64,000 nt of DNA from Vampirovibrionales bacterium (GCA_947458095.1 CANGYO010000001.1:6414-70413), one strand, 5' to 3'. Numbered from the stretch's first letter, positions 1 through 18,777 are shown. Numbers and translations are program-made. The notes: generated by a model from the sequence alone, not told the origin.

Positions 1-916
1 AAAAGGCTTTAAAAAACCTTAAAAACCTTGCGAATAAAGAAAATAGCCCCATTGCCAATGGGTATTTTACACCCTTGTAATAGAGGGCTTGGCCTGTAAC
101 AAAACAGGTGTTCCCTGACGTCGGATGCGTCCATTGAAAAGTAAACGAACCCTTCTCTGCTCGAGTATGAAACGCCACAACATCCACATACCATCCCCTT
201 CCTAAGGGGAGTAAGCAGGGCATCCACCCACGCACGGCAAGGACTTGACGCTCTAAAACCTCAAGGGGAGCCTCGGGATTTAAGATCACTTGTGTAATTT
301 GCTCCAATCGATGATGAGACGCCCCCCAGACCTCTTGTTCTCTGGCACTATGATGGTAGGCTTCTAAGCCTTTTTCTTCAATATCCGCCAAAACGCTTTC
401 AACAAGTAGTGGAAGCTCGTACAAGGTAAGGTTTTGCAAGTCTAAGCCTGACATCCCCGCCTCAATGGGTACCACGTGTTGTGCCAAAATTTTACCTTCA
501 TCCACGCAAGGTACCACTTGATGTAAGGTTAATCCGCTTTGGACTTCCCCTGCTAATACGCAAGCGATATAAGGATTCACCCCTCGGTGAGCGGGCAATA
601 AGGACGGATGCACGTTCCACACCTTAATTGGTGCCAAGGCTTCAAGTGTATGTGCCGTTAAAATCTCGCCCCACGACGCCAAAAGTAACACATCGGGCTT
701 TACCAAGGCTTTCAAATGATCCATCACAACGGACGCCTGAATACCATGGGGGCATTGAATAAAAGAAATGCCCGCTTCATGCCATTGGGGCATGGCGTGT
801 TCTTGAACGCTCGTGAGTATTGCCACAATTTGGATGCGTTCGGCTTGATGAGCCAAAAGCAAGGGCTTCATCAAGGCATGAAGCATCCGACCTTTTCCAA
901 CCACACAAAGTTTCAA
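1..916 (-). CDS. fmt: Formyltransferase-family protein, most likely methionyl-tRNA formyltransferase (Fmt); C-terminus runs off the window edge
   Basis: Manual translation of the minus strand gives ...KLCVVGKGRMLHALMKP...DVLLLASWGEILTAHTLEALAPIKVWNVHPSLLPAHRGVNPYIACVLAGEVQSGLTLHQVVPCVDEGKILAQ..., which contains the formyltransferase HPSLLP motif and an Fmt-like layout. The reading frame is open to position 1, which would explain its absence from the ORF track. TTG/GTG/ATG start candidates lie at 916/904/886. Confidence 0.6.
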   Translation of the reverse strand, partial: MKLCVVGKGRMLHALMKPLLLAHQAERIQIVAILTSVQEHAMPQWHEAGISFIQCPHGIQASVVMDHLKALVKPDVLLLASWGEILTAHTLEALAPIKVWNVHPSLLPAHRGVNPYIACVLAGEVQSGLTLHQVVPCVDEGKILAQHVVPIEAGMSGLDLQNLTLYELPLLVESVLADIEEKGLEAYHHSAREQEVWGASHHRLEQITQVILNPEAPLEVLERQVLAVRGWMPCLLPLGRGWYVDVVAFHTRAEKGSFTFQWTHPTSGNTCFVTGQALYYKGVKYPLAMGLFSLFARFLRFFKAF

Positions 917-952
917 GCCGTCTTCCTTACTGATGCCTTAAGTACTTGGAGC

Positions 953-1942
953 CTAAGGACTCGCAGGGGGAGGGGGCGTTCCTGCCATGGCATCTGATGC
1001 CATTGTAGCAGAAGAAGCCGCTTCGGTGTTTGATGTGGTGGTTTGATCACTACTGAGGAAAATATCCAATGTTAAGGTCAAAATCAACGGCGTATTGGCT
1101 TTTTTGGTAGAGCTTAAGGAAGAGATCGACGGAAGGGCAGGAAGTCCAGACGTTACACTAGGGGATACGCCTGAAGCAGAAGCCGTCACCGTGCTTGAAC
1201 TCGACGGTTTTGAAGTTGTGGCTCCTGACACAATGGCTTCTGGCACATTTCTAAATAATAAGACACTCGGGGCTTCTGTATCCACCTTAAATTCCAAACC
1301 TTTAATGCCCACCAAAGGCGAATGAATCGCTAATTTTCTGACAAAATTAACAAGTCCCACATAGGATCCACGTACATCAATTTTATAGGTATATTGTTCG
1401 GCAGGCACGTCCAACTTAAGTTGCTCTAATTCAGGGACGGGAAAAGGGGTCAGTTCTGGACTAAAGATATTTTTAGTCGCCCCTGCTTGAGCAGGAGCTG
1501 TTGTGGATGTCCCCGTCGCCGCAGGTGACGTTTCACTAAGCACCTGTTCCACATGAAAAATAGAAACGTCATGATGCGGTGCAGGCAGATTAAGCGGATC
1601 TGCACTAAGCCCTTCTAAGTCTTTCAAAAAATTAAAGATTTTCACAGAAGTAATTTCACCAGGTAAAATACGGAGTAGATCCGTCGTATTTTGCTCGGCT
1701 TCACCTTTGAGTTGAACCAATAACACATCGAGGGCTTCTTTTTCCTTAAGCTCTTGTTGTTTTGTGGCAATGTCTTTTTCAATTTGGGTCGCCGAAGCAA
1801 GTACAGACGCAAACAAGACATTAAACGCAATCACTAAAACGACGACAATACCCGCAATGCCTACCAAAACCTCAGGGGTTTGCATGACCTTTGGGAAGGC
1901 GGGATGATTAGGACCAAAGACGTTACTCGTTGTTTTTCGCAT
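953..1942 (-). CDS. pilO: Type IV pilus assembly protein PilO-like, with an N-terminal TM helix, a coiled coil and a Ser/Thr/Pro-rich C-terminal tail
   Basis: The 329 aa ORF has a TM helix (VLVGIAGIVVVLVIAF) followed by a coiled coil. It has a PilO-like core (YTYKIDVRGSYVGLVNFVRKLAIHSPLVGIKGLEF) and sits directly downstream of a PilM/N gene. Confidence 0.55.
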   Translation of the reverse strand: MRKTTSNVFGPNHPAFPKVMQTPEVLVGIAGIVVVLVIAFNVLFASVLASATQIEKDIATKQQELKEKEALDVLLVQLKGEAEQNTTDLLRILPGEITSVKIFNFLKDLEGLSADPLNLPAPHHDVSIFHVEQVLSETSPAATGTSTTAPAQAGATKNIFSPELTPFPVPELEQLKLDVPAEQYTYKIDVRGSYVGLVNFVRKLAIHSPLVGIKGLEFKVDTEAPSVLLFRNVPEAIVSGATTSKPSSSSTVTASASGVSPSVTSGLPALPSISSLSSTKKANTPLILTLTLDIFLSSDQTTTSNTEAASSATMASDAMAGTPPPPASP

Positions 1943-4191: not shown

Positions 4192-5256
4192 ATGAGAGAC
4201 TGGAAGAATAAAAACACGTTGGCTTGTTTAGTATTGGCTTTATTGATTGCTTCTCATTGGAACGTCCTTGTCTGCGACGCCCAAGAACAAGTCCCTTCGT
4301 TGCCCAGCAACGAAAAATTGACCCTTTTGCCTACAAAAGCAAAAGCATTGATCGCAAACTTGCCCTTAATGAAAGATGTCGCCTTTGCTGAAGGCATGGC
4401 GTCAGGTGACACCTTTAAGTCTAGTAAGCCTGCGGAAACTTCGGTTAAAACAACCACTCAAGTGGTTTCCTTAGAACGCAGTGCCAAAGAAGAACGTCAA
4501 GAACAACTCGATCTTGTCGTGACACGGCACTTGCAAGCCGTGCCTGACAAAATCGTGCTAAACACGATGTTTGCCAAAGAACTACCGTATTCCTTGCGGA
4601 CGGTTTACAATAAGCAACTCGAAGAAGCAGGCTTCTATATTAATGAGCAAGAAGTCTTTCGCTTTCGTTCACGATTGGGCTTTTTAACGCCTTACTTGCG
4701 TTCTAAGCAAGTGGCGGATCGCTTGAGTAGCGTTGCCAAATCACCCCTTCGCTTTCAGGATGTTCACTTAGAACGTCAAGCCGAAGGCGATTACAAGCTC
4801 ATGATTGGTAAGCATCTGCTTACGGTGGTGGATGAATCCACGGCTGTTGCGGCTCACATGCCCTTAGATACCCTCGCTAAATTGTGGATGAAACAGCTCC
4901 GCACCGCACTGGGTGAAAAGCCTGTACCCGCCCCTTCGATGTTTGATTTAAAAGCATCAGGACGCTTCATCGCCAAAGGTGTGGCATCTTGGTACGGACC
5001 AGGGTTTCACGGTCGTAAATCGGCGGATGGGTCTCGTTTTAACATGCACCACATGACCGCTGCCCATAAAACCTTGCCGTTTGGCACGAAAGTCAAAGTC
5101 ATTAACGAGCGTAACGGCAAAAGCTGTGTGGTTCGCATCACGGATCGAGGGCCGTATAGCCATCATCGTGTGATTGATTTGTCTAAAGCGGCGGCTCAAG
5201 CGATTGGGGCGGTGTCTTCAGGCGTGGCGAAAGTCCGCCTCGAAGTCTTGAATTAG
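4192..5256 (+). CDS. rlpA: RlpA-family septal-ring lytic transglycosylase (DPBB domain) with a signal peptide
   Basis: The C-terminal WYGPGFHGRKSADGSRFNMHHMTAAHKTLPFGTKVKVINERNGKSCVVRITDRGPY is a canonical RlpA double-psi beta-barrel. The N-terminus is a hydrophobic signal sequence. Confidence 0.75.
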   Translation: MRDWKNKNTLACLVLALLIASHWNVLVCDAQEQVPSLPSNEKLTLLPTKAKALIANLPLMKDVAFAEGMASGDTFKSSKPAETSVKTTTQVVSLERSAKEERQEQLDLVVTRHLQAVPDKIVLNTMFAKELPYSLRTVYNKQLEEAGFYINEQEVFRFRSRLGFLTPYLRSKQVADRLSSVAKSPLRFQDVHLERQAEGDYKLMIGKHLLTVVDESTAVAAHMPLDTLAKLWMKQLRTALGEKPVPAPSMFDLKASGRFIAKGVASWYGPGFHGRKSADGSRFNMHHMTAAHKTLPFGTKVKVINERNGKSCVVRITDRGPYSHHRVIDLSKAAAQAIGAVSSGVAKVRLEVLN

Positions 5257-5270
5257 ATTATTTTTCAACT

Positions 5271-5307
5271 AAAAAGCCCTCTTTTCTTTATGCAAGGAGG
5301 GCTTTTT
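5271..5307. terminator. Bidirectional Rho-independent terminator between convergent rlpA and holA
   Basis: The sequence aaaaagccctc-ttttctttatgcaag-gagggcttttt has a 7-bp GC-rich stem flanked by an A-run and a T-run. Confidence 0.6.
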
Positions 5308-5318
5308 GCTTACTGGAT

Positions 5319-6296
5319 TTACGTCAGCATCAACTGCTCTAGGACTAAGACAGGGTTGTCGTCCCCACTTTTCAGGCGAAACTCCACTTCAAGTAAACGA
5401 CGCTTCAACGCCTCAAGATTCGCCAGACTCAAACCACGCACCTTCTCTAAATCCTTTTGAATAGGGAAGACCTTCTTCCCCTCAACTTGAGCCATCTCTT
5501 CCAATGACTGCCCCACCGCCAACCCACGCTTGATGCGGTAATAATAGTTCACCCGACTCGACAATAAGGCGAGAAACTTAATCGGAGCATCGCTCACCAA
5601 CAACGCATTGAGATCGTGCATGCTCCGATGCGTCAAGCGTTTTTGCAACCACGCATCCACCACGCTAAAGGTTTGGGCATCTAGCACACTAAAGCTTCGC
5701 ACATGGTGGGCTTCAATGACTTGAGCATTCGTAAAGGCATGGAGCTTTTCACATTCATTCACCAAAGGACGCAAGTCATTGCCCATGAACTCCACCAATA
5801 AAAAAGCGGCGTCTCGACTCAAGCGAATATCGAGGTACTGGCATTCTTCCATAAGAAAATGTACGGCTTTTTCAGCGTCCCAAAAGGCGGGCGTATCAAA
5901 CAAGTGAAGCACGCTTGCTTTATGAGATTTTATCCACTTGCCTAATTTCATGCGAACATCCAGCTTCGACGTCAAAAAAATGATGTCCTTCTGCTCCGCT
6001 TGAGCCTCCAACGCCTCAATGAGTTCAGGCACACGCCCCTTGTCGTCTTCTTTGAGATCATACAACCCCTGCCAGTGATGCACTTCCACCACAGGCAAGC
6101 CGCCCAAGGCAAAAAAGCTGGTGTTCAAGGTTTCCAACAACTGCGAAAAACTCGGATCGTCCAAGACATGATGCGTCAACGCACCCAACTCGCTATTGAC
6201 GACCTGCTTCCGCAAAGCCCTAAACGCCCGTTCCTTGCGGTATTCATCCGTGCCGTAAAACACATGAATCGCCATACTTAAAACGCCAATTTCCAA
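5319..6296 (-). CDS. holA: DNA polymerase III delta subunit
   Basis: The 325 aa ORF starts IHVFYGTDEYRKERAF..., a typical HolA start, and its size and helical C-terminal domain are consistent with HolA. It overlaps the upstream MlaD-like gene by 19 nt, suggesting an operon. Confidence 0.65.
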   Translation of the reverse strand: MEIGVLSMAIHVFYGTDEYRKERAFRALRKQVVNSELGALTHHVLDDPSFSQLLETLNTSFFALGGLPVVEVHHWQGLYDLKEDDKGRVPELIEALEAQAEQKDIIFLTSKLDVRMKLGKWIKSHKASVLHLFDTPAFWDAEKAVHFLMEECQYLDIRLSRDAAFLLVEFMGNDLRPLVNECEKLHAFTNAQVIEAHHVRSFSVLDAQTFSVVDAWLQKRLTHRSMHDLNALLVSDAPIKFLALLSSRVNYYYRIKRGLAVGQSLEEMAQVEGKKVFPIQKDLEKVRGLSLANLEALKRRLLEVEFRLKSGDDNPVLVLEQLMLT

Positions 6297-7983: not shown

Positions 7984-8028
7984 GGGGGCGGTTCTATTCT
8001 TCCTCCTGATTTGGGGAGGGCAACCGCC

Positions 8029-9531: not shown

Positions 9532-9600
9532 AGGGTCGTCCTTCTTGCGTTGGGGGTGGGTTTCCCCTAGTCTAGCATGAAAACGCTGTCCCTTGGTTCT

Positions 9601-9730
9601 GTCCCCCCTCCTAATTTTAGGAGGGGGTTAGGGGGCGGTTAAACCCTAGACTCCGTTTGTGGTTTAACCTCACCCTCGAACGTCCTTCAGACGTTCTCTT
9701 CCCTCTCCTAAAATTAGGAGAGGGGACAAG
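9601..9730. repeat. Composite palindromic element P1 (three nested hairpins), reverse complement of the 16679 element
   Basis: It contains cccccctcctaattttaggaggggg, ggttaaaccctagactccgtttgtggtttaacc, gaacgtccttcagacgttc and cccctctcctaaaattaggagagggg. Related copies are at 15140 and 16679. Confidence 0.8.
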
Positions 9731-11805: not shown

Positions 11806-12630
11806 ATGTCTTTAAACACCCTGAAAATCGGCATTGTCGGCTTGGGCAATATGTCGGGGGCGATTCTGAAAGGCTTGTTGAAGGCAGGGGTTTTGCCTGA
11901 AAACGTTGTAGGCATTGCGTCTTCACCCGAACGAGCGACCTTGCGTCAAGCCGAATACGACGTAAGCTGTACCACACTTGAGCTTGGCAAAGAGGCCCTT
12001 TCACAGGTGGATCTGCTCCTTTTAGGCGTGAAACCCTTTGTGATGCCCGCTGTTTTAGCCGATTTAGAAGGCATCACGCTGAAGGCGGAGGCTGTGGTGG
12101 TGTCTGTCGCAGCGGGTACGACCTTGGCGACGATAGGTGAGTCCTTGCCGAATACGGCGATTGTGCGAGCCATGCCGAATACGCCAGCCCTTGTGGGACA
12201 AGGGTTTACGGCAATGGCTCCGAATGCGTATGTGGGGGATGCTCAAAAAACGCTGGTGGCATCGGTGTTTGAAGCGGTGGGTAAGGCGGTGTGGCTCGAA
12301 GAGGGGCAGATCAACGCCTTTACAGGGCTTTTTGGTAGCGGCCCTGCGTATGTGTTCTACATCATGGAAGCCTTGGTAGAAGCGGGTTTAGCCGAAGGAT
12401 TGCCCCCTGAATTGGTGGAAGCAGGCGTGCTTCAGCTGGTGAAAGGATCCGCCTTATTGCTGGAAACCCGTGCGACGACCGCATCTCAGCTAAAGGCGGA
12501 GGTCGTCACCCCTAACGGCACCACAGCGAAAGGCTTAGAGGCGTTGGCATCAGCGAAGGTGGATGTCGCCTTACAAGAGGCCGTCCATCAAGCGACACGT
12601 CGAGCAGAAGAGTTGTCGAAAAACGTGTAA
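11806..12630 (+). CDS. proC: Pyrroline-5-carboxylate reductase
   Basis: The 274 aa ORF has GIVGLGNMSGAIL, AMPNTPALVGQG, GSGPAYVFYIMEAL and VTPNGTTAKGL motifs. Confidence 0.85.
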   Translation: MSLNTLKIGIVGLGNMSGAILKGLLKAGVLPENVVGIASSPERATLRQAEYDVSCTTLELGKEALSQVDLLLLGVKPFVMPAVLADLEGITLKAEAVVVSVAAGTTLATIGESLPNTAIVRAMPNTPALVGQGFTAMAPNAYVGDAQKTLVASVFEAVGKAVWLEEGQINAFTGLFGSGPAYVFYIMEALVEAGLAEGLPPELVEAGVLQLVKGSALLLETRATTASQLKAEVVTPNGTTAKGLEALASAKVDVALQEAVHQATRRAEELSKNV

Positions 12631-12644
12631 AAAGGCGTTAATTT

Positions 12645-12756
12645 CCGACACACGAAAGTCGATTCTTGACACACGAAACCCTGTTTTCTGACACACGAAA
12701 CCCGCCTTTCTGACACACGAAACCCGCCTTTCTGACACACGAAACGACGCCTTTTT
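12645..12756. repeat. Tandem array of five 22-bp direct repeats (tgacacacgaaacccgcctttc)
   Basis: The units are ccgacacacgaaagtcgattct, tgacacacgaaaccctgttttc, tgacacacgaaacccgcctttc (x2, identical) and tgacacacgaaacgacgccttttt. The array is flanked by inverted aaaggcg/cgccttt and lies between convergent proC and the RHH-like gene. Confidence 0.85.
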
Positions 12757-12759
12757 CAT

Positions 12760-13191
12760 CTAGTGAGGGCCCTCCTCGCTTCGAAGCTCCCACAACTCCT
12801 TATGGGCTTCTTTCTTAAAGTAGTGCATAAACGCATGTTCAATCATATCACTAAACGATAGATGCAAGACCTTGGCTTCTCGTTCAAGGATTTTCTTGAA
12901 TTGAGGCGACACCCAAAGACCCATCCGCACCCGATCGCTTTTCGGACGCCCCACAATTTTCGGAGGCCTTTCATAGGTCTCTGAACGCTCCATCGCTTGG
13001 TCGGCTTCTTCCATCACCGCAAACCACGCTTCCAATTTGTCCATAAAATGCTCTTCTGATTCAGTGCGGGATCCGCCTGTGGTGGTGAAAAAGTTAAAAA
13101 GTGCATGCGACGTGACGAAGCAACCTCGTCGCATGTCGTAACGGGTGCGTAAGCCGATGCGAGGGTCGTCGTCTCCACGATAGAGTTTCAT
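12760..13191 (-). CDS. Hypothetical protein with a C-terminal ribbon-helix-helix-like DNA-binding motif
   Basis: The 143 aa ORF has a strong RBS (AAAGGAGA-N7-ATG). The C-terminal VRMGLWVSPQFKKILEREAKVLHLSFSDMIEHAF fits a beta-strand/helix/helix RHH pattern. The N-terminal 70 aa are unassigned. Confidence 0.4.
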   Translation of the reverse strand: MKLYRGDDDPRIGLRTRYDMRRGCFVTSHALFNFFTTTGGSRTESEEHFMDKLEAWFAVMEEADQAMERSETYERPPKIVGRPKSDRVRMGLWVSPQFKKILEREAKVLHLSFSDMIEHAFMHYFKKEAHKELWELRSEEGPH

Positions 13192-13235
13192 TTCGGGGTC
13201 TCCTTTGGTTTTTTTTGGGGGGGATGCCTTATGTT

Positions 13236-13260
13236 CCCCCTCCTAATTTTAGGAGAGGGG
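13236..13260. repeat. Single palindromic hairpin P2 (ccccctcctaattttaggagagggg)
   Basis: A perfect 9-bp stem, identical to the arms of the composite P elements. T8 and G7 homopolymer runs lie immediately adjacent. Confidence 0.7.
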
Positions 13261-13357
13261 ACACAGGCTACTATCCTAAGCATGACAACTATTTACGCCA
13301 TTGCATAGTGCGTAAAACCCACTATTTTCCACACGGCAATGTAACAATTTAAAACGC

Positions 13358-13419
13358 CGATCAAACATAGCAAAGATCAAGGGCTTGATCTTCACCTGAT
13401 CTGATCGTACGATCCGATC
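13358..13419. promoter_or_regulatory. Cluster of seven GATC sites, including the 12-bp palindrome GATCGTACGATC, about 65 nt upstream of the methyltransferase gene
   Basis: The sequence is cgccGATCaaacatagcaaaGATCaagggcttGATCttcacctGATCtGATCgtacGATCcGATCgcc, giving 7 GATC sites in 62 bp. Confidence 0.6.
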
Positions 13420-13483
13420 GCCTTATCAGAGGCGTTTTTTCGACACAGAAAGAATGTCCCTATAAAGCACGGAGTCCCCCACA

Positions 13484-14392
13484 ATGAAAAGCCCCGAAAC
13501 CCTCATGTTATTACACCAAGACGACACACTAAGCTTGCACTTAGGCGATGTGCTAGAAACCCTAGCCAGCTTGCCCCAAGAAAGTGTCGATCTTATTTTT
13601 GCCGACCCCCCCTACAACTTGAGCAACGACGGCTTTACCTGCCACGCAGGCAAACGAGTCAGCGTCAACAAAGGGGTGTGGGACAAAAGCAACGGCGTGC
13701 AAGCCGATTTCGATTTTCACCGTGCGTGGATTTCCGCCTGTTACCGAGTGCTAAAACCCAACGGTAGCCTATGGATTAGTGGCACCTACCATTCCATTTA
13801 CGCTTGCGGATTCGCCCTACAACTCGACGGCTGGCATGTGATTAACGATGTCGCATGGTTCAAGCCCAACGCCGCCCCGAACTTGAGTTGCCGTATGTTT
13901 ACCGCCAGCCATGAAACGCTGATTTGGGCGAGAAAAAGCAAAACCGCCAAGCACACGTTTAACTATGACTTGATGAAAAACGGCATGTGGCATGAAGACG
14001 ATTTCATTAAAAAGCCTGAAAAACAAATGCGAAGCGTGTGGGCAAGTGGCACGCCCAAACCCCACGAAAAAGCCTTTGGTAAGCACCCCACCCAAAAGCC
14101 CGAACTGCTGTTAAGACGCATTGTAATTGCCAGTAGCTTACAAGGTGACGTGGTGCTAGACCCCTTTTGTGGGAGCGGTACAACAGGCGTAGTCGCCTTA
14201 CAACACGGACGCAACTTCATTGGCATTGACCAAAACCGTGAGTATTTGGAAGGGATTGCCATTCGCCGTTTAAAACACATTCAAGAACAAGTGCAAGCGT
14301 GTATAATAAAGGAACAGTTAGAGTCCTTGTATGCACTGGATGCCTATATAGATGAGTCTTCAATTCAACTTAGCTTATGCGGAATCTTATAA
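13484..14392 (+). CDS. Beta-class N6-adenine/N4-cytosine DNA methyltransferase of the CcrM/M.HinfI/DpnA family
   Basis: Motif IV DPPY (VDLIFADPPYNL) precedes motif I (LDPFCGSGTTG). Conserved blocks AHETLIWARKSKTAKHTFNYD and HPTQKPELLLRRI match the CcrM/HinfI methylase family. Confidence 0.85.
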   Translation: MKSPETLMLLHQDDTLSLHLGDVLETLASLPQESVDLIFADPPYNLSNDGFTCHAGKRVSVNKGVWDKSNGVQADFDFHRAWISACYRVLKPNGSLWISGTYHSIYACGFALQLDGWHVINDVAWFKPNAAPNLSCRMFTASHETLIWARKSKTAKHTFNYDLMKNGMWHEDDFIKKPEKQMRSVWASGTPKPHEKAFGKHPTQKPELLLRRIVIASSLQGDVVLDPFCGSGTTGVVALQHGRNFIGIDQNREYLEGIAIRRLKHIQEQVQACIIKEQLESLYALDAYIDESSIQLSLCGIL

Positions 14393-15134
14393 TAGTGAAA
14401 CGCAACGTGTTAGACGTATGTCTGAAAAATGGCTGGTGGAAGAATCATATTGCCCTGCGTGTGGGGGACGTTTGGCGGAATATCCCAATAATAAACCTGT
14501 GCGAGATACGTATTGTGAAGATTGTGGTGAAAAATACGAGCTAAAATCTAAAAAAAGTAGTGAAAAAGGACTTTTAAAGCTTCCTGAAAAAATTGTGGAT
14601 GGGGCGTATGCCACGATGATGCAAGATATGGAAGCCCAAACGACTCCCAATTTATTATTTTTACAATACTTAAGTGGCTATACGGTGGCGTCTTTACTGG
14701 TGATTCCTAAGCAGTTTTTCGTGCCTGCTTTAATTGAAAAGCGTAACCCTTTATCCAAGACGGCACGACGTGCAGGCTGGGTGGGTTGTAATATCCTACT
14801 AGAACCCATTCCACAAGTGGGACGGATTCCCATTATTCAAAACAAAGTATTTGAACCGAAGGATAAGGTTATTTCTATTTTTCAGAAAACCTTATTTTTA
14901 CGACATCAACAAAAACTTGAAGCTAAAGGCTGGTTGCTGGATGTGATGCGGTGTGTGGAACTCATCGGCAAAGAAGAGTTTACGTTGCAAGATATTTATC
15001 AACATGAAGCGATGCTGAAAGACTTACATCCCGACAATAATAATGTGCAAGCGAAGATACGGCAACAATTGCAAGTCTTGCGAGACGCAGGCTTCTTGGC
15101 GTTTGTGGGTCGTGGGGTGTATCGGGTGGTGTAA
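14352..15134 (+). CDS. DpnI-like methyl-directed (G6mATC-type) restriction endonuclease; overlaps the methyltransferase by 41 nt
   Basis: The 260 aa ORF resembles DpnI along its length as recalled from memory: MSLQFNL...SYCPACGG...YCEDCGEKYELKSKK...DGAYATMMQ...ARRAGWVGCNI...EFTLQDIY...KIRQQLQVLRDAGFLAFVGRGVYRVV. DpnI has an N-terminal PD-(D/E)XK nuclease and a C-terminal winged helix. Confidence 0.8.
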   Translation: MSLQFNLAYAESYNSETQRVRRMSEKWLVEESYCPACGGRLAEYPNNKPVRDTYCEDCGEKYELKSKKSSEKGLLKLPEKIVDGAYATMMQDMEAQTTPNLLFLQYLSGYTVASLLVIPKQFFVPALIEKRNPLSKTARRAGWVGCNILLEPIPQVGRIPIIQNKVFEPKDKVISIFQKTLFLRHQQKLEAKGWLLDVMRCVELIGKEEFTLQDIYQHEAMLKDLHPDNNNVQAKIRQQLQVLRDAGFLAFVGRGVYRVV

Positions 15135-15139
15135 ATGCC

Positions 15140-15267
15140 GTCCCCTCTCCTAATTTTAGGAGAGGGAAGAGAACGTCTGAAAGACGTTCGAGGGGGAGCT
15201 TAGACTCACCACGGGCATCTAGGGTTTAACCGCCCCCTAACACCCTCCTAAAATCAGGAGGGGGGAC
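15140..15267. repeat. Composite palindromic element P3
   Basis: It contains gtcccctctcctaattttaggagaggg, gaacgtctgaaagacgttc, ...tagggtttaacc... and ccctcctaaaatcaggagggg. It has the same architecture as the elements at 9601 and 16679. Confidence 0.75.
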
Positions 15268-15286
15268 AAAGCCAATTGGGTTTCGT

Positions 15287-15360
15287 CATTGCGAGCGTAG
15301 CGTGGCAATCTGTCAAGACGTCGCAGGTGGGGGAACAGATTGCTTCGTTGCACTCGCAAT
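15287..15360. repeat. Long nested inverted repeat (cattgcgag...gcaatctgt-N22-acagattgc...ctcgcaat)
   Basis: Two nested perfect inverted repeats of 9 bp each enclose a G-rich loop. It is a possible structured RNA or protein-binding site. Confidence 0.5.
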
Positions 15361-15422
15361 AACGGTGTTTTTTATCACTTTGCGTAGAGTCTCCTCAAGG
15401 AGAGGGAACAGAGCCGAAGCAC

Positions 15423-15451
15423 TTGACAAAGCGTGCAACATTTGACACAAT
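15423..15451 (+). promoter_or_regulatory. Convergent promoter TTGACA-N17-CACAAT (copy C, plus strand because the module is inverted)
   Basis: The plus strand reads TTGACAaagcgtgcaacatttgaCACAAT. Confidence 0.5.
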
Positions 15452-15507
15452 ATAAAAAGGGAGAGTCCCCAAGTCGGTAAACTTGAGAACTCTTTTTCGC
15501 TATCCTC

Positions 15508-15570
15508 CTAGAGTTTTGTCACTAGAAGGAGGATAATTAACAGCGACATAAGTTTCTGAAGTTCATCCAT
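15508..15570 (-). CDS. Candidate 20-aa hydrophobic peptide MDELQKLMSLLIILLLVTKL
   Basis: It has the same RBS spacing, length and C-terminal LLIILLLVTKL as copies A and E. Confidence 0.5.
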   Translation of the reverse strand: MDELQKLMSLLIILLLVTKL

Positions 15571-15711
15571 TTTAGCTCACCTCCTTTCTGTTACAGAACG
15601 GGGGTGTTGCTTATTAGCAACCCTTTAAAGGTTTTTATTAGACTAGCACAAAGCCTTAGCAGGTTCAAGCCAGATACGGCAACAATGGCAAGTCTTGCTT
15701 GAATCCGCCTG

Positions 15712-16668
15712 ATGCTTTTTTGTGAAAGGATGCCCTCTTTGATTCCACGCACCGACATCCAAAAACAGCTCAACGACGTGGGCATTACGCAGTGGGGCGT
15801 TCTCACCACCGATGCCCTCAAAAACGAAGCCCAACGCCTGACGGCGTGGCTGGAGGCTGGGCATCACGCCGACATGGACTGGATGCCTCGTCACGCCGAA
15901 AAACGGGTGTCTCCGTCTGATTTGTGGGAAGGCGTGCAAAGTGTCGTGGTGGTGGCCGTCAACTACTTCCCTGGTTGGGAAGCAGGGCAAGGCGACGATC
16001 TGAAAATCGCTCGCTACGCCCTAGGCAAGGACTATCACAAGGTGATTCGTCGTAAGCTTGGCAAGGTTTTAAAGGCGTTACAGGCGGAACATGAGGGCTT
16101 AGAGGGTCGTCCCTTTGTGGATTCGGCGCCTTTGCTTGAAAAGGCGTTAGCCGTTCAAGCAGGCTTGGGCTGGCAAGGCAAGCATAGTCTTTTAATCACG
16201 AAAGAAGCAGGGTCATGGGTGATGCTTGGGGCGTTGTTCCTCAATCAAGCCGTTGATGCCTATACCAGTCCCCACGAAAACACGCTGGAATCGGGGCATT
16301 GTGGGACCTGTACGCGGTGCATCACGGCTTGCCCCACGGAGGCGATCGTCTCGCCCACGGTCGTCGACAGCCGTCGGTGCATCGCCTATTGGACGATTGA
16401 AAATGGAGATGATGCTTTGCCTGATTTTATCCAAGACAACCAGCAGGATTGGGGCTTTGGATGCGACATTTGCCAAGATGTCTGCCCATGGAACCTGAAG
16501 TTTTCTAACGTGACTGAGGAGCCTGCCTTTGCCCCTCGGGCGGTGTTGGCACATCCGAATCGGGCGTATTTTCAGAGTTTGAGTGAAGCCGCTTTTGCTC
16601 AAGCCTTTGAAAATAGTCCCTTGCGTCGCACGGGCTTGAGGCGGATCCAGCGGAATATCATGCTTTAG
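15712..16668 (+). CDS. queG: Epoxyqueuosine reductase
   Basis: The 318 aa ORF has a QueG-type layout with a C-terminal 4Fe-4S ferredoxin motif (CGTCTRCITACPT) and a second Cys cluster (CDICQDVCPWN). The start may be the downstream ATG at 15730. Confidence 0.75.
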   Translation: MLFCERMPSLIPRTDIQKQLNDVGITQWGVLTTDALKNEAQRLTAWLEAGHHADMDWMPRHAEKRVSPSDLWEGVQSVVVVAVNYFPGWEAGQGDDLKIARYALGKDYHKVIRRKLGKVLKALQAEHEGLEGRPFVDSAPLLEKALAVQAGLGWQGKHSLLITKEAGSWVMLGALFLNQAVDAYTSPHENTLESGHCGTCTRCITACPTEAIVSPTVVDSRRCIAYWTIENGDDALPDFIQDNQQDWGFGCDICQDVCPWNLKFSNVTEEPAFAPRAVLAHPNRAYFQSLSEAAFAQAFENSPLRRTGLRRIQRNIML

Positions 16669-16678
16669 AGAATCGCCT

Positions 16679-16808
16679 TGTCCCCTCTCCTAATTTTAGG
16701 AGAGGGAAGAGAACGTCGTTAGACGTTCGAGGGTGAGGTTAAACCTTAGACTCCGTTTGTGGGTTTAACCGCCCCCTAGCCCCCTCCTAAAATTAGGAGG
16801 GGGGACAA
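16679..16808. repeat. Composite palindromic element P5
   Basis: It contains gtcccctctcctaattttaggagaggg, gaacgtcgttagacgttc, ggttaaaccttagactccgtttgtgggtttaacc and ccctcctaaaattaggagggggg. It is the reverse complement of P1. Confidence 0.8.
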
Positions 16809-16880
16809 AACAAAAGCTACATTTGGATATTTCCCATAAAAGCTAAACACCCCCAATCTAATAGAAAGGAGGTGAGCTAA

Positions 16881-16955
16881 ATGGATAATAGTCAACAAGT
16901 GTTGATTTTAATGATTATCCTCCTTCTAGCGACAAAAACTAGGAGGATAGCATAA
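16881..16955 (+). CDS. Candidate 24-aa peptide MDNSQQVLILMIILLLATKTRRIA (a 1-nt indel extends the C-terminus)
   Basis: It uses the same RBS and frame as the other copies. A single-base difference relative to copy E removes the usual TAG and extends the ORF by 4 codons. Confidence 0.4.
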   Translation: MDNSQQVLILMIILLLATKTRRIA

Positions 16956-16998
16956 AGGAGTTCTCAAGCTTTTACGCTTGGGGACTCCCCCTTTTTAT

Positions 16999-17027
16999 AT
17001 TGTGGCAAATGTAGAAGCCTTTGTCAA
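16999..17027 (-). promoter_or_regulatory. Convergent promoter TTGACA-N17-CACAAT (copy D)
   Basis: The minus strand reads TTGACAaaggcttctacatttgcCACAAT. Confidence 0.5.
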
Positions 17028-17170
17028 GAGGGCGGCTGGTTTATAGTACCCCTGTTTGTAGACCTTGTTTATACTTGAAAGCCTTGCGATTTTATGCTAG
17101 CTTATAAAAAACCTTAAAAGGGTTGCTAATAAGCAACACCCCCAATCTAACAGAAAGGAGGTGAAGCAAA

Positions 17171-17233
17171 ATGGATCATATAGAACATCTTTCGATGTTA
17201 CTAATTATCCTCCTTCTAGTGACGAAACTCTAG
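17171..17233 (+). CDS. Candidate 20-aa hydrophobic peptide MDHIEHLSMLLIILLLVTKL
   Basis: ATG lies 7 nt after AAAGGAGGTGA. The 3' end of the ORF sits inside the anti-SD-containing hairpin. Confidence 0.5.
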   Translation: MDHIEHLSMLLIILLLVTKL

Positions 17234-17289
17234 GAGGATAGCTGAACGGAGTTCTCAAGCTTTTACGCTTGGGGACTCCCCCTTTTTAT

Positions 17290-17318
17290 ATTGTGGCAAA
17301 TGTAGAAGCTTTTGTCAA
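17290..17318 (-). promoter_or_regulatory. Convergent promoter TTGACA-N17-CACAAT (copy E)
   Basis: The minus strand reads TTGACAaaagcttctacatttgcCACAAT. Confidence 0.5.
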
Positions 17319-17433
17319 GATCTCGCCATCAATTACACATCATGCAAAAACTGTATTTTTAAGCTCACACGTTAAAAATCCGTTGAAACGTTTCTATAAT
17401 AGTAGGCATCACTAAAATGAGGAAGCCCCTGCT

Positions 17434-18777
17434 ATGTCCACCAATACTATTAGCCCTCCCAGAACCGAAACCGTAAGCCCACGAGGCATCCCCTTACTAG
17501 AAAACGTCCCCACGTCACTAGACGCCTTGGCAGACTATATTTATAGCCACGCCCCCAAACTCACCCAAAAACAGCAAGTGCTTTTGGTGGAAGGCGGTTC
17601 GCAATACGGCGCCTTAAATCAATTCACCCAAAACCTCAACGAAGCCTTTCGCTTACGAGGTCACGCCACCGCACAGCTTAACCTGCATGACAATCCCCAC
17701 GCCAACCAAGAACTCGACGGCATTCTTAAGAACTTTAAACCCAGTATGCTATTTAGCCTTAATGCCATCCATGAAGCGGTCGAATTAAGCAACCGAAAGA
17801 CGCTTGGGCAACATCTCAAAGTGCCTAGCCTGTCGTGGTTTGCGGATCACCCCTTGATTCAGTGGCCTCGTATCGTTGAGGTGGACTATCCTGAAAAAAT
17901 AAATGCTCATTTTGCGATTGAAGGCTTTCGAAATACCCAGCATCGTGTGGTGAAGCATCCGCTTAAAGCCTTTAATACGACGCTTCCCGGTGTAGGCTTT
18001 CCGTCCTTTGAAACGCAAAAACCGTTTAAAGAACGGACGATTTCACTTTTGGTGCCGTGTAGCTTTACCCCCTTTCAAGAAAAGCTAGAATCGCTCAAAT
18101 TCCCCAAATTTCCTGCCTTTGAAGCCCTTTGCAAAGAAGCGATCGACTACCTCATCGCATCACCTGAACATCCTGCCGATACCTTCTTGCTCGACGGGCT
18201 AGAACGCCTTGGTGTGGATCCTAAGGCGGTTCACCCTTATCAGTATCCCCGCCTCATGGCGTGGATCAATCACAGTGCGGAAATGTACTGGCGAGAAAAC
18301 TTTTTAAGACAAGCGAAAAACATTCCGCTGACCTTGTGCGGTAATGGCTGGGAAAAGGCCTCCTTTTTGTCGGACAAATGGACGCTATTGGCGCCGCCTA
18401 AAACGGGGACATCCGTGGCGTTGTATGGCGACACTCAAGCCGTTTGGCACATTTTCCCGATGTATCCTGAAAGTGGGCATGACCGCATTGATAACGCTAC
18501 GGCGAATGGAACCAATCTCATCACGGAGCCGAAAGAATGGCTCCAAGGCTATTACGGCAAGGCGTTGCAGTATATCGCTCAAGATTTATCGACGGTGGAA
18601 GAAACCTTGCAAAGCTATTTGAACGCTCCGCTAGCCGAGCGTGAGGCTCAAGCGAATTATGCCCAGCGTTTTACCTTAACGAACCGCACCTTCTTCAATA
18701 GTGTGATTGATATTGAAGATATTTTGGAGCGTTTTGCCTTGCGTCAAGCCTTGAGCGAGTATCCGAAAAGTGATTAG
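17434..18777 (+). CDS. Hypothetical protein, possibly a CgeB-family (Glyco_trans_1_2-like) glycosyltransferase
   Basis: In this 447 aa ORF the only recognisable motif is near the C-terminus (DRIDNATANGTNLITEPKE, reminiscent of the CgeB-type R.FE..a.G..l.te motif). Confidence 0.3.
   Translation: MSTNTISPPRTETVSPRGIPLLENVPTSLDALADYIYSHAPKLTQKQQVLLVEGGSQYGALNQFTQNLNEAFRLRGHATAQLNLHDNPHANQELDGILKNFKPSMLFSLNAIHEAVELSNRKTLGQHLKVPSLSWFADHPLIQWPRIVEVDYPEKINAHFAIEGFRNTQHRVVKHPLKAFNTTLPGVGFPSFETQKPFKERTISLLVPCSFTPFQEKLESLKFPKFPAFEALCKEAIDYLIASPEHPADTFLLDGLERLGVDPKAVHPYQYPRLMAWINHSAEMYWRENFLRQAKNIPLTLCGNGWEKASFLSDKWTLLAPPKTGTSVALYGDTQAVWHIFPMYPESGHDRIDNATANGTNLITEPKEWLQGYYGKALQYIAQDLSTVEETLQSYLNAPLAEREAQANYAQRFTLTNRTFFNSVIDIEDILERFALRQALSEYPKSD

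Follow-up and report, generated by a model that had tools for sequence, protein, structure and literature searches.

In Streptococcus pneumoniae, the DpnI and DpnII restriction systems described by Lacks and colleagues occupy one chromosomal locus as alternative cassettes, one encoding the Gm6ATC-dependent nuclease DpnI and the other a methylation-sensitive GATC nuclease together with methyltransferases that include the beta-class enzyme DpnA, and this polymorphism provides herd immunity at the population level. By definition, a methyl-dependent restriction enzyme does not share a cell with a methyltransferase that produces its target. Here we describe a cassette in a 64,000-nucleotide (nt) stretch of DNA from a Vampirovibrionales bacterium (GCA_947458095.1 CANGYO010000001.1:6414-70413; the whole stretch is referred to as the window), in which a DpnI-like gene overlaps a methyltransferase gene. 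From the comparisons reported below we are highly confident that the operon combines a DpnA-type, predicted GATC-specific N6-adenine methyltransferase with a true DpnI orthologue, and that it is one allele of a polymorphic GATC restriction cassette. The two genes are the following.

13484-14392, plus strand: DpnA-type beta-class N6-adenine DNA methyltransferase of 302 amino acids (aa), predicted to be GATC-specific and intact, as judged from profiles, alignments and a tree.
14352-15134, plus strand: DpnI orthologue of 260 aa with a PD-(D/E)XK catalytic domain and a winged-helix (wH) domain reading N6-methyladenine (m6A), predicted to be a Gm6ATC-dependent endonuclease.

The window cassette resembles the pneumococcal systems in having a DpnI orthologue, a DpnA-type methyltransferase and alternative alleles at one locus. 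In the pneumococcus, however, the methyltransferases are swapped together with the nuclease and the DpnI strains are without a GATC methyltransferase, whereas exchange at the present locus is confined to the nuclease module plus the final ~40 methyltransferase codons, and the intact methyltransferase stays overlapped with DpnI. The locus therefore represents a DpnI/DpnII-like polymorphism outside Firmicutes and Neisseria in which the nuclease module alone is exchanged. The drg/dam locus of Neisseria (NgoAXI; Drg is an NmeBII-type DpnI homologue) is similar in that a DpnI homologue stands beside a DpnA-type methyltransferase, 48% identical to that of the window, and is then followed by the open reading frame (ORF) of a small nuclease of the c179 family, 49% identical to the Vampirovibrionales c179 protein described below. 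In the N. gonorrhoeae locus L004, drg is followed by a frameshifted DpnA-type methyltransferase gene and then by a truncated c179 homologue of 151 aa (ORFs 5034-5735 and 5732-6187), which suggests that the gonococcal drg locus descends from a GATC restriction-modification (R-M) system composed of a methyltransferase and c179. This locus is known as NgoAXI, assigned to GATC by REBASE, with a disrupted downstream methyltransferase (PMC6789123), and has been described as 'DPNIIB-like' (PMC4269198). It differs from the window cassette in that the frameshift of the methyltransferase removes the conflict, in the gene order (nuclease, then methyltransferase), in being without a GATC-cluster promoter, and in that the Neisseria enzyme is without Trp138.

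The wH-fusion m6A endonucleases (FcyTI, Psp4BI and SruGXI; PMC11037411) share with the enzymes of this cassette the PD-(D/E)XK-wH and wH-HNH architectures, the wH motif and the predicted Gm6ATC dependence, but they are overwhelmingly stand-alone. A survey of over 1000 wH-fusion nucleases found 87% of them to be without a methyltransferase at a distance of up to three genes, and 6mA/4mC methyltransferases directly beside PD-(D/E)XK-wH genes were reported to be frameshifted (PMC11037411). The four typical DpnI homologues that we examined all stand alone as well, and the remark in the initial annotation that a methyltransferase beside a DpnI-type enzyme is unusual is borne out by both sets. The expectation that a DpnI-family gene stands alone does not hold here, where an intact GATC-family methyltransferase overlaps the nuclease and is conserved alongside it; the Vampirovibrionales cassette also breaks the rule of frameshifted adjacent methyltransferases. 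Its components are known; the arrangement, its conservation, the exchange of the nuclease alone and the putative GATC-built promoter are new.

The ORF at 14352-15134 is placed in the DpnI family by profile searches, as its initial description as DpnI-like had anticipated. It matches Pfam DpnI (PF06044, E 1.7e-65, profile positions 1-182 of 183) and Pfam DpnI_C (PF17726, E 8.8e-30, profile positions 1-69 of 70), aligns end to end (residues 1-258) with the S. pneumoniae DpnI structure 4esj (E 8e-72, 46% identity), and scores 311 bits with the PADLOC model 'Type II methyl-directed restriction enzyme' (mREase_II). Its ATG lies 41 nt inside the methyltransferase ORF, and because the DpnI alignment begins at Met1, this overlap, also recorded at the outset, is genuine. 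In DpnI, catalysis involves D53, E64 and K66; the G:C pairs are read by N48, R126, R135, D78, S17 and Q18; the cleft for both N6-methyl groups is formed by L129, R135, W138 and G140; and K229 and R231 of the wH domain bind DNA (PMC4117772). In the window nuclease, the catalytic D52, E63 and K65 as well as C34, C37, C55 and C58 are invariant in 33 homologues, and the cleft, readout and wH residues are kept as L134, R140, W143, G145, N47, R131, Q18, K235 and R237, together with the equivalent of D78. The sole change among these role residues is S17 to Thr. The role residues are invariant or nearly so across the 33-homologue alignment, and checking them against DpnI and these homologues gave no sequence sign of altered specificity. 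FcyTI and Psp4BI, both 58% identical to DpnI, have been tested experimentally, and relatives at this identity are strictly Dam-dependent; FcyTI cuts methylated GATC only, with a toxicity of over 1000-fold in dam-plus E. coli (PMC11037411). The nearest outgroup of the window nuclease clade, P0004 (60% identity), shares a 6-residue loop insertion with it and stands alone between the isocitrate dehydrogenase gene and pdxA. We therefore regard the nuclease with high confidence as a true DpnI orthologue, predicted to cut Gm6ATC only. A scan of viral contigs returned 5 loci with DpnI relatives.

The ORF at 13484-14392 matches the Pfam family N6_N4_Mtase (PF01555, E 1.7e-59) and carries DPPY (residues 41-44) before FCGSGTTG (residues 228-235), which is the motif order of the beta class to which it had been assigned from the start. 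The protein falls in the size class of ~260-300 aa and is without a C-terminal DNA-binding domain, as is characteristic of DpnA-type enzymes; the family is very large, with members of ~285 aa conserved at ~70% identity across phyla, and close relatives of the window enzyme are found in metagenome-assembled genomes of Vampirovibrionales. All of the 100+ invariant family positions are kept, frameshifts and stops are absent, and the alignment comparison revealed no substitution at conserved positions shared among the DpnI-linked methyltransferases. P261R corresponds to Lys/Arg in DpnA-type enzymes. We considered whether the DpnI-type cassettes carry a module-specific C-terminal tail that inactivates the enzyme and rejected this, because the tail (...YALD) aligns with the family consensus (...YGILP) and is of the native family type with a read-through extension. 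Orthology with the cyanobacterial M.Ssp6803III/DmtA was likewise rejected, as DmtA is of the D12/Dam class (PMC6105098). A C7 tract at 13607-13613 lies inside the DPPY codons and is interrupted by synonymous changes in the related contigs L048 and L049, and poly-C tracts of 7-9 nt are present in the 5' leader of the methyltransferase gene in L008 (~4960-5000) and L009 (~4955-5000); these tracts are possible slipped-strand switches, though not conserved.

It is very probable that the methyltransferase is GATC-specific, since five independent lines point this way: best matches, structure-based residues, family neighbours, phylogeny and the GATC cluster at the putative promoter. The best match among annotated plasmids is M.LlaDCHIB, the second methyltransferase of LlaDCHI on pSRQ700 (49% identity, 251 bits), the gene of which sits between those of a Dam-type methyltransferase and a DpnII-type endonuclease; a staphylococcal plasmid has the same three-gene arrangement. 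The window enzyme is thus of the M.LlaDCHIB beta-class lineage found in the DpnII/MboI/LlaDCHI systems, and the complete arrangement of Dam-type methyltransferase, DpnA-type methyltransferase and DpnII endonuclease occurs in the family members L101, L121 and L125 (53-61% identity). Unlike in these systems, the window nuclease is predicted to have the opposite methylation requirement and no Dam-type methyltransferase accompanies it: tblastn detected no Dam, DpnII or MutH homologue elsewhere in the 64-kb window.

The CcrM/HinfI-like blocks pointed out in the initial annotation are real, with a match of 199 bits and 45-48% identity across the catalytic domain to CcrM (6pbd), CcrM-type hits scoring ~198 bits, and the enzyme shares with CcrM and M.HinfI the beta-class fold and probably the strand-separating style of recognition. 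They do not mark its closest relationship, however, since M.LlaDCHIB scores higher and in PADLOC the top profile, a type II methyltransferase of 260 aa, reaches 318 bits, as against 255 bits for a 364-aa profile and 242 bits for that of CcrM-like orphans. Recognition of GANTC in the CcrM-DNA structure involves Arg44 for the G and Loop-45 for the T and C; Pro45 acts as a wedge in the DNA, the strands are separated, and the C-terminal domain of ~80 residues holds the second strand (PMC6787082). In the window enzyme R44-P45 is replaced by His-Ala, Loop-2B is one residue shorter, and the 6pbd alignment stops at CcrM residue 260, the CcrM C-terminal domain being absent. Loop-45 is KPNAAPNLSCRMF in the window enzyme, SNPMPNFKGTRF in CcrM and NPAPNLSCRYF in DpnA-type enzymes; the signature PNLSCRxF is common to the window and DpnA-type enzymes, where CcrM has PNFKGTRF.

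For the neighbour survey, 80 metagenomic loci of the methyltransferase family were taken from an alignment-based scan, and the 76 with a complete methyltransferase ORF (52-72% identity) were typed. A MutH-family nuclease (PF02976) was adjacent in 17 of the 76, a DpnII-family endonuclease (PF04556) in 12, a PD-(D/E)XK protein of 173-193 aa, here called c179, in 11, a DUF6996/DUF6997 protein, here called d437 (PADLOC type II restriction endonuclease, 177 bits), in 7, and DpnI in only 1; a Dam-type methyltransferase was next door in 6. The partner gene is mostly directly downstream and co-directional. GATC is the site of the MutH/Sau3AI and DpnII/MboI enzymes. A neighbour-joining tree nests the window clade among methyltransferases of GATC systems with partner types mixed, M.LlaDCHIB, a GATC enzyme defined by experiment, being basal and CcrM the outgroup. 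The commonest partner in these loci is MutH-sized (202-214 aa) and not Sau3AI-sized (L050 4089-4697, L053 4781-5425, L060 2345-2965 and 14 further loci); such pairs may represent either minimal R-M systems for GATC or portable modules for methyl-directed nicking.

One branch of the initial annotation held that the methyltransferase makes G6mANTC, so that the pair would be compatible and would join an epigenetic mark to an anti-Dam defence. This reading, which extends to any other non-GATC mark, can draw on the catalytic-domain identity to CcrM, on the CcrM model NF050803 being the top NCBIfam match (242 bits) and on CcrM-like loop motifs (QMRS.W and ASHETL). We consider it very improbable, because the NF050803 score falls far short of the cut-off (830), with coverage restricted to model positions 8-257 of 350, R44-P45 and the C-terminal domain of CcrM are missing, DpnA-type profiles and enzymes score higher, the family neighbours are GATC enzymes and Dam, the tree agrees, and the seven conserved sites at the promoter are GATC and not GANTC. 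Nor is GANTC avoided in the window (observed/expected ratio, o/e, 1.16). K-mer avoidance as a guide to specificity was itself dropped as uninformative, the o/e of GATC being 0.74. The other branch, a GATC-specific methyltransferase whose pairing would be self-toxic unless the nuclease had changed, is therefore favoured, and no such change was found in the specificity residues of the nuclease.

The sequence around the 5' ends of the two genes contains the following elements.

13359-13419, plus strand: seven GATC sites in 61 nt, with the palindromes GATCAAGGGCTTGATC and GATCGTACGATC, directly 5' of the methyltransferase gene.
13385-13390 and 13408-13413, plus strand: putative sigma-70-like promoter within the GATC cluster (-35 TTGATC, 17-nt spacer, -10 TACGAT).
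13419-13434, plus strand: terminator-like hairpin with a T-run, between the GATC cluster and the methyltransferase start.
14302-14307, plus strand: perfect TATAAT in the 3' tail of the methyltransferase gene, 45 nt 5' of the DpnI ATG.

The segment 13359-13419 is the densest GATC cluster of the window, with 7 sites per 100 nt against at most 3 elsewhere and 0.18 expected in 61 nt. All GATCs of the cluster and the spacing of the hexamers are kept in 10 of 10 cassettes of every nuclease type, including L143 (78% methyltransferase identity), whereas the spacers between the GATCs vary among the ten and four spacer positions vary between the hexamers. The -10 element of L143 is TAGGAT. We infer a promoter within the cluster from hexamers that agree with the consensus at 8 of 12 positions, which is under the threshold of the scan tool. 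Transcripts from it would be expected to begin near 13420, and a separate nuclease transcript near 14315. An attenuator at 13419-13434 was considered and rejected because the hairpin is weakened in L001 and absent in L008 and L049; it is probably without function. The 12 nt around the TATAAT (GTGTATAATAAA) are identical in L048 and L049 although the synonymous divergence (dS) nearby is 0.6-1.1, which hints that the element could be a separate nuclease promoter. The coding DNA of the cassette (13484-15134) contains one GATC (13589) against ~4.9 expected from the window density, and the DpnI gene contains none.

The pair is not confined to the window. The same two genes with the same 41-nt overlap were found in L049 (Logan assembly; nuclease 83% identical, methyltransferase 302 aa), in L048 (ENA assembly; nuclease 90% identical) and in the JGI contig with P0001 (nuclease 97% identical), and the cluster of nucleases at 90% has 4 members, all on separate contigs. 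In L048 the methyltransferase appeared to be split into genes of 69 and 184 aa; this was rejected as a real split because it coincides with a scaffold gap of 10 N, with the frame intact on both sides. Selection was estimated as pairwise Nei-Gojobori omega (dN/dS). For the methyltransferase, omega between the window and L049 was 0.06 (dS 0.79) and between the window and L048 0.03-0.07 (dS 0.28-0.45); for the nuclease, the corresponding values were 0.085-0.094 (dS 1.07-1.19) and 0.10 (dS 0.6). Relative to nuclease type, the methyltransferase distances among sequences of the window's species form a star-like pattern; alleles recombine, and the low omega of the methyltransferase may be due in part to periods spent in conventional alleles. 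An independent instance of the pairing is provided by L100, a more distant member of the family (63% methyltransferase identity), in which an intact methyltransferase gene is divergent beside another intact DpnI homologue. In L100 a second short methyltransferase-like ORF with an NPPF motif (794-1402, minus strand) lies on the other side of the DpnI gene.

It could be argued that the pair is non-functional or transient, one partner being dead or trivially unexpressed, or that it is an assembly chimera of coexisting alleles. The locus is polymorphic within populations, which is the situation in which metagenome assemblers make chimeras, and the repeated replacement of DpnI described below could mean that the state is disfavoured. 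We regard this explanation as quite improbable: the same junction occurs in four independent assemblies (JGI, ENA, Logan and NCBI) with nuclease divergence of 3-17%, the apparent split in L048 is merely the run of N, and both genes are free of frameshifts and stops, keep their invariant residues and show omega of about 0.1 or lower.

In sister genomes the same methyltransferase (89-95% identity) and promoter are followed by four different partners in the nuclease slot: DpnI, a wH-HNH m6A-reader nuclease, the small PD-(D/E)XK enzyme c179, and the DUF6996/6997 type II enzyme d437. The wH-HNH allele encodes a convergent 206-aa wH(DpnI_C)-HNH nuclease with the m6A/GATC-reading helix AKVRQQLQQLRD and is carried by L001, L010/L011, an ENA contig and L143; the c179 allele is present in L006, L007 and L008, and the d437 allele in L009. 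Searches of PDB sequences gave no solved structure for c179 or d437. The nucleotide homology common to all alleles runs from 13298 to ~14272, that is, to methyltransferase codon ~262. On the right-hand side, one further feature marks the exchange.

15048-15134, plus strand: 3' end of the DpnI gene, which survives as a remnant in L006, L009 and L007; right-hand recombination junction.

The last ~85 nt of the DpnI gene, ending in ...IRQQLQVLRDAGFLAFVGRGVYRVV*, persist after the replacement genes in three of the four conventional-enzyme cassettes, behind c179 in L006 (6613-6700) and L007 (1536-1586) and behind d437 in L009 (7125-7210). These remnants indicate that the methyltransferase-DpnI pair is the ancestral allele at the locus and that DpnI has given way to other nucleases on several occasions. 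One or more of these events must be recent, because the methyltransferases of L007 (c179) and L049 (DpnI) have a dS of only 0.075. Near-identical methyltransferases with different nucleases were also seen outside Vampirovibrionales (L082 with d437 against L079 with c179), and exchange of the nuclease alone appears to be a general tendency in this family of methyltransferases.

The interchangeability of the slot under one promoter would be explained most simply by functional equivalence of its occupants, as a one-step change from a methyl-dependent to a methyl-sensitive enzyme, or the reverse, ought to kill the cell. On this view the locus would be a conventional type II R-M system, in which the DpnI-fold and wH-HNH enzymes have lost their methyl dependence and, like the conventional GATC enzymes found in the slot, cut unmethylated GATC while the methyltransferase protects the host. 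An operon of overlapping genes is typical of R-M systems, mutagenesis indicates that the methyl specificity of DpnI is not borne by the cleft residues alone (PMC4117772), and the adjacency of a methyltransferase has itself been argued to speak against methyl dependence (PMC11037411). Against this, every cleft, base-contact and wH residue is conserved, methylation would need to block both domains and not just be tolerated, and tested relatives at comparable identity are Dam-dependent. The outgroup P0004 is alone without a methyltransferase, so it must be methyl-dependent, as it would otherwise be toxic. On balance we find the loss of methyl dependence distinctly unlikely.

If the two predictions hold, a GATC methylase and a nuclease cutting only methylated GATC are encoded in one operon, and the pair should kill its host. 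In the reading that we prefer, while regarding it as plausible rather than probable, a methylation-responsive promoter keeps the methyltransferase silent or conditional in unmethylated DpnI-type cells; the position of this promoter, the direction of its response to methylation and the methylation state of the host are what we infer. Chromosomal GATC would be unmethylated in DpnI-type cells, and the nuclease would restrict incoming DNA with Dam-type methylation, as in S. pneumoniae DpnI and Neisseria drg strains. The methyltransferase promoter, with GATC in the -35 element, the spacer and the -10 element, would sense its own methylation directly or through a reader protein and would be off or very low when unmethylated, and expression of the nuclease could possibly start from a separate -10 element within the tail of the methyltransferase gene. 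The methyltransferase would accordingly be active, and would sustain its own expression, in the methylated alleles with a conventional enzyme, and it would be switched off in those with DpnI or wH-HNH; conditional use, together with frequent allelic recombination, would preserve the gene intact; an incoming promoterless restriction gene could thereby arrive silently. This is the only simple regulatory logic that makes all alleles viable under one shared promoter. A promoter with a GATC cluster whose expression depends on Dam methylation is known from the mom gene of phage Mu.

Several points weigh against a silent methyltransferase. Such a gene should decay, as it has in Neisseria, in Moraxella and in a Bacteroidota genome, but no DpnI-linked or wH-HNH-linked copy of the methyltransferase gene is disrupted. 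The methyltransferase/wH-HNH junction is common to L001 and L143 despite divergence to 78% and 76% identity, which implies long co-inheritance under selection and use of the methyltransferase in those cells. Negative feedback, which is more usual and would have the gene active in the unmethylated state, would kill the cell here. An overlap of 41 nt points to co-expression of the pair, and the internal TATAAT is without a good -35 element and was not reported by the scan tool.

These points lead to the alternative that both enzymes are functional in one cell as a two-gene epigenetic defence or suicide circuit, with the GATC-built promoter sensing methylation or feeding back on it, which we hold to be doubtful. 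Such a circuit would take the form either of a conditional mark-and-cut or abortive-infection device or of a switch with two stable immune states, 'methylated/conventional' and 'unmethylated/DpnI'. For the first form, which appears rather unlikely, a conditional methyltransferase would mark GATC upon a trigger, for example infection or a single-stranded DNA stage, and DpnI or the wH-HNH nuclease would destroy the marked DNA, the cell possibly being sacrificed and the GATC-cluster promoter acting as sensor or amplifier. It is consistent with purifying selection on both genes while linked, with their tight overlap, with two unrelated nuclease architectures that carry the same wH motif (KIRQQLQxLRD) and are each stably joined to the methyltransferase, with the conservation of the wH-HNH junction down to 78% identity and with the independent divergent pair in L100 with its intact methyltransferase. 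The GATC cluster is also kept in DpnI-type cells, where it is a liability unless functional, and enzymes of the DpnA/CcrM lineage act on single-stranded DNA. On the other hand, the pair is not accompanied by any conserved trigger, inhibitor or third gene; in conventional sister cassettes this methyltransferase core keeps the genome protected, which requires efficient methylation of double-stranded DNA; all of the relatives tested proved lethal upon co-expression in one cell; and the evidence for selection is confounded by recombination between alleles (the star-like methyltransferase distances and the low dS between L007 and L049). Conceptual precedents exist in the Pgl system of Streptomyces, composed of four or more genes, in which the mark made by a host methyltransferase leads to restriction of the marked DNA, and in the methyl-specific suicide by McrBC described by Fukuda and Kobayashi, in which the cell dies when a methyltransferase meets the methyl-dependent nuclease. 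They are precedents in concept only, as the proteins are unrelated and there is no sign here of a trigger or of infection-dependent activation.

In either case the pairing is conserved across diverged lineages and ancestral at the locus, with the intact GATC methyltransferase overlapping DpnI and, in sister strains, abutting the wH-HNH m6A reader. If the promoter reading is right, an epigenetically switched methyltransferase would be a novel regulatory way out of a lethal genetic conflict; if both enzymes turn out to be active at the same time, the locus would be more than a variant of the DpnI/DpnII-type cassette polymorphism and would represent a new defence logic in which the cell writes a mark and then cuts it. 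The 2-kb cassette makes the survival of a change in restriction polarity directly testable.

The cassette lies between proC and queG on the Vampirovibrionales chromosome, with purH and proC upstream and queG downstream, all of which are housekeeping genes. The features of its flanks are given below.

12642-12754, strand not assigned: five-copy tandem array of the 22-nt repeat TTTCTGACACACGAAACCCGCC, at the left flank of the cassette and not found elsewhere in the window.
12760-13191, minus strand: small ORF, listed as 143 aa, whose C-terminal half is ribbon-helix-helix-like (…VRMGLWVSPQFKKILEREAKVLHLSFSDMIEHAFMHYF…), between the array and the cassette and of doubtful membership.
13229-13262, strand not assigned: palindrome resembling repetitive extragenic palindromes and miniature inverted-repeat transposable elements (REP/MITE-like), core CCTCCTAATTTTAGGAG, left of the cassette.
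15140-15275, strand not assigned: two REP-like palindromes (15140-15173 and 15238-15268) ~97 nt apart, forming a MITE-like unit at the right flank.
15672-15698, plus strand: second copy (26 of 27 nt) of the DpnI segment coding for the wH helix, AGATACGGCAACAAT(T/G)GCAAGTCTTGC, just 5' of queG; repeat family D7.

The TTTCTGACACACGAAACCCGCC array is also present upstream of the cassette in L001 (~1342-1473), L006 (~4578-4718), L011 and L048 (~1659-1799). The array and cassette occupy two chromosomal contexts, after ftsZ in these four contigs and after proC here; the array travels with the cassette, and iterons, protein-binding sites or a cassette boundary are possible roles for it. The ORF at 12760-13191 has no Pfam, NCBIfam or PADLOC match. 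It is missing from L048, L001 and L006, where the cassette comes directly after the array, and for this reason it is probably an insertion particular to the window genome. Palindromic repeats do bracket the cassette, as had been noted initially (13229-13262 on the left; 15140-15173 and 15238-15268 on the right), but they belong to a generic REP/MITE-like family and are not specific to it. This family has 8 sites in the window (8002, 9607, 9704, 13239, 15146, 15244, 16686 and 16783), scattered intergenically over 8-17 kb, with 15 strand matches against 0.1 expected; other paired units, each of two CCTCCTAAWWTYAGGAGR palindromes ~97 nt apart, are at ~9600-9730 and 16680-16818, and the sites at 8002 and 13239 are single. 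The MITE-like unit is also found 3' of the cassette in L006 and L048. The copy of the wH-helix segment at 15672-15698 is possibly the footprint of an earlier cassette exchange.

Rfam and tRNA scans identified no RNA genes in 12000-17500. The intergenic DNA upstream of queG (15414-15700), which has no Rfam match, is ~80% identical to intergenic DNA elsewhere in sister genomes (L008 2583-2818, L009 2549-2775 and L049 5-89) and contains a strong promoter-like site at 15423-15451. Over the whole window (1-64000), the 4-mer palindromes composed of G and C only are extremely depleted (o/e 0.09 for CGCG, 0.12 for CCGG, 0.14 for GCGC and 0.17 for GGCC), while the remaining 4-mer palindromes have an o/e of 0.66-1.11, which suggests that this lineage has long been under pressure from several further restriction systems or from methylation of cytosine.

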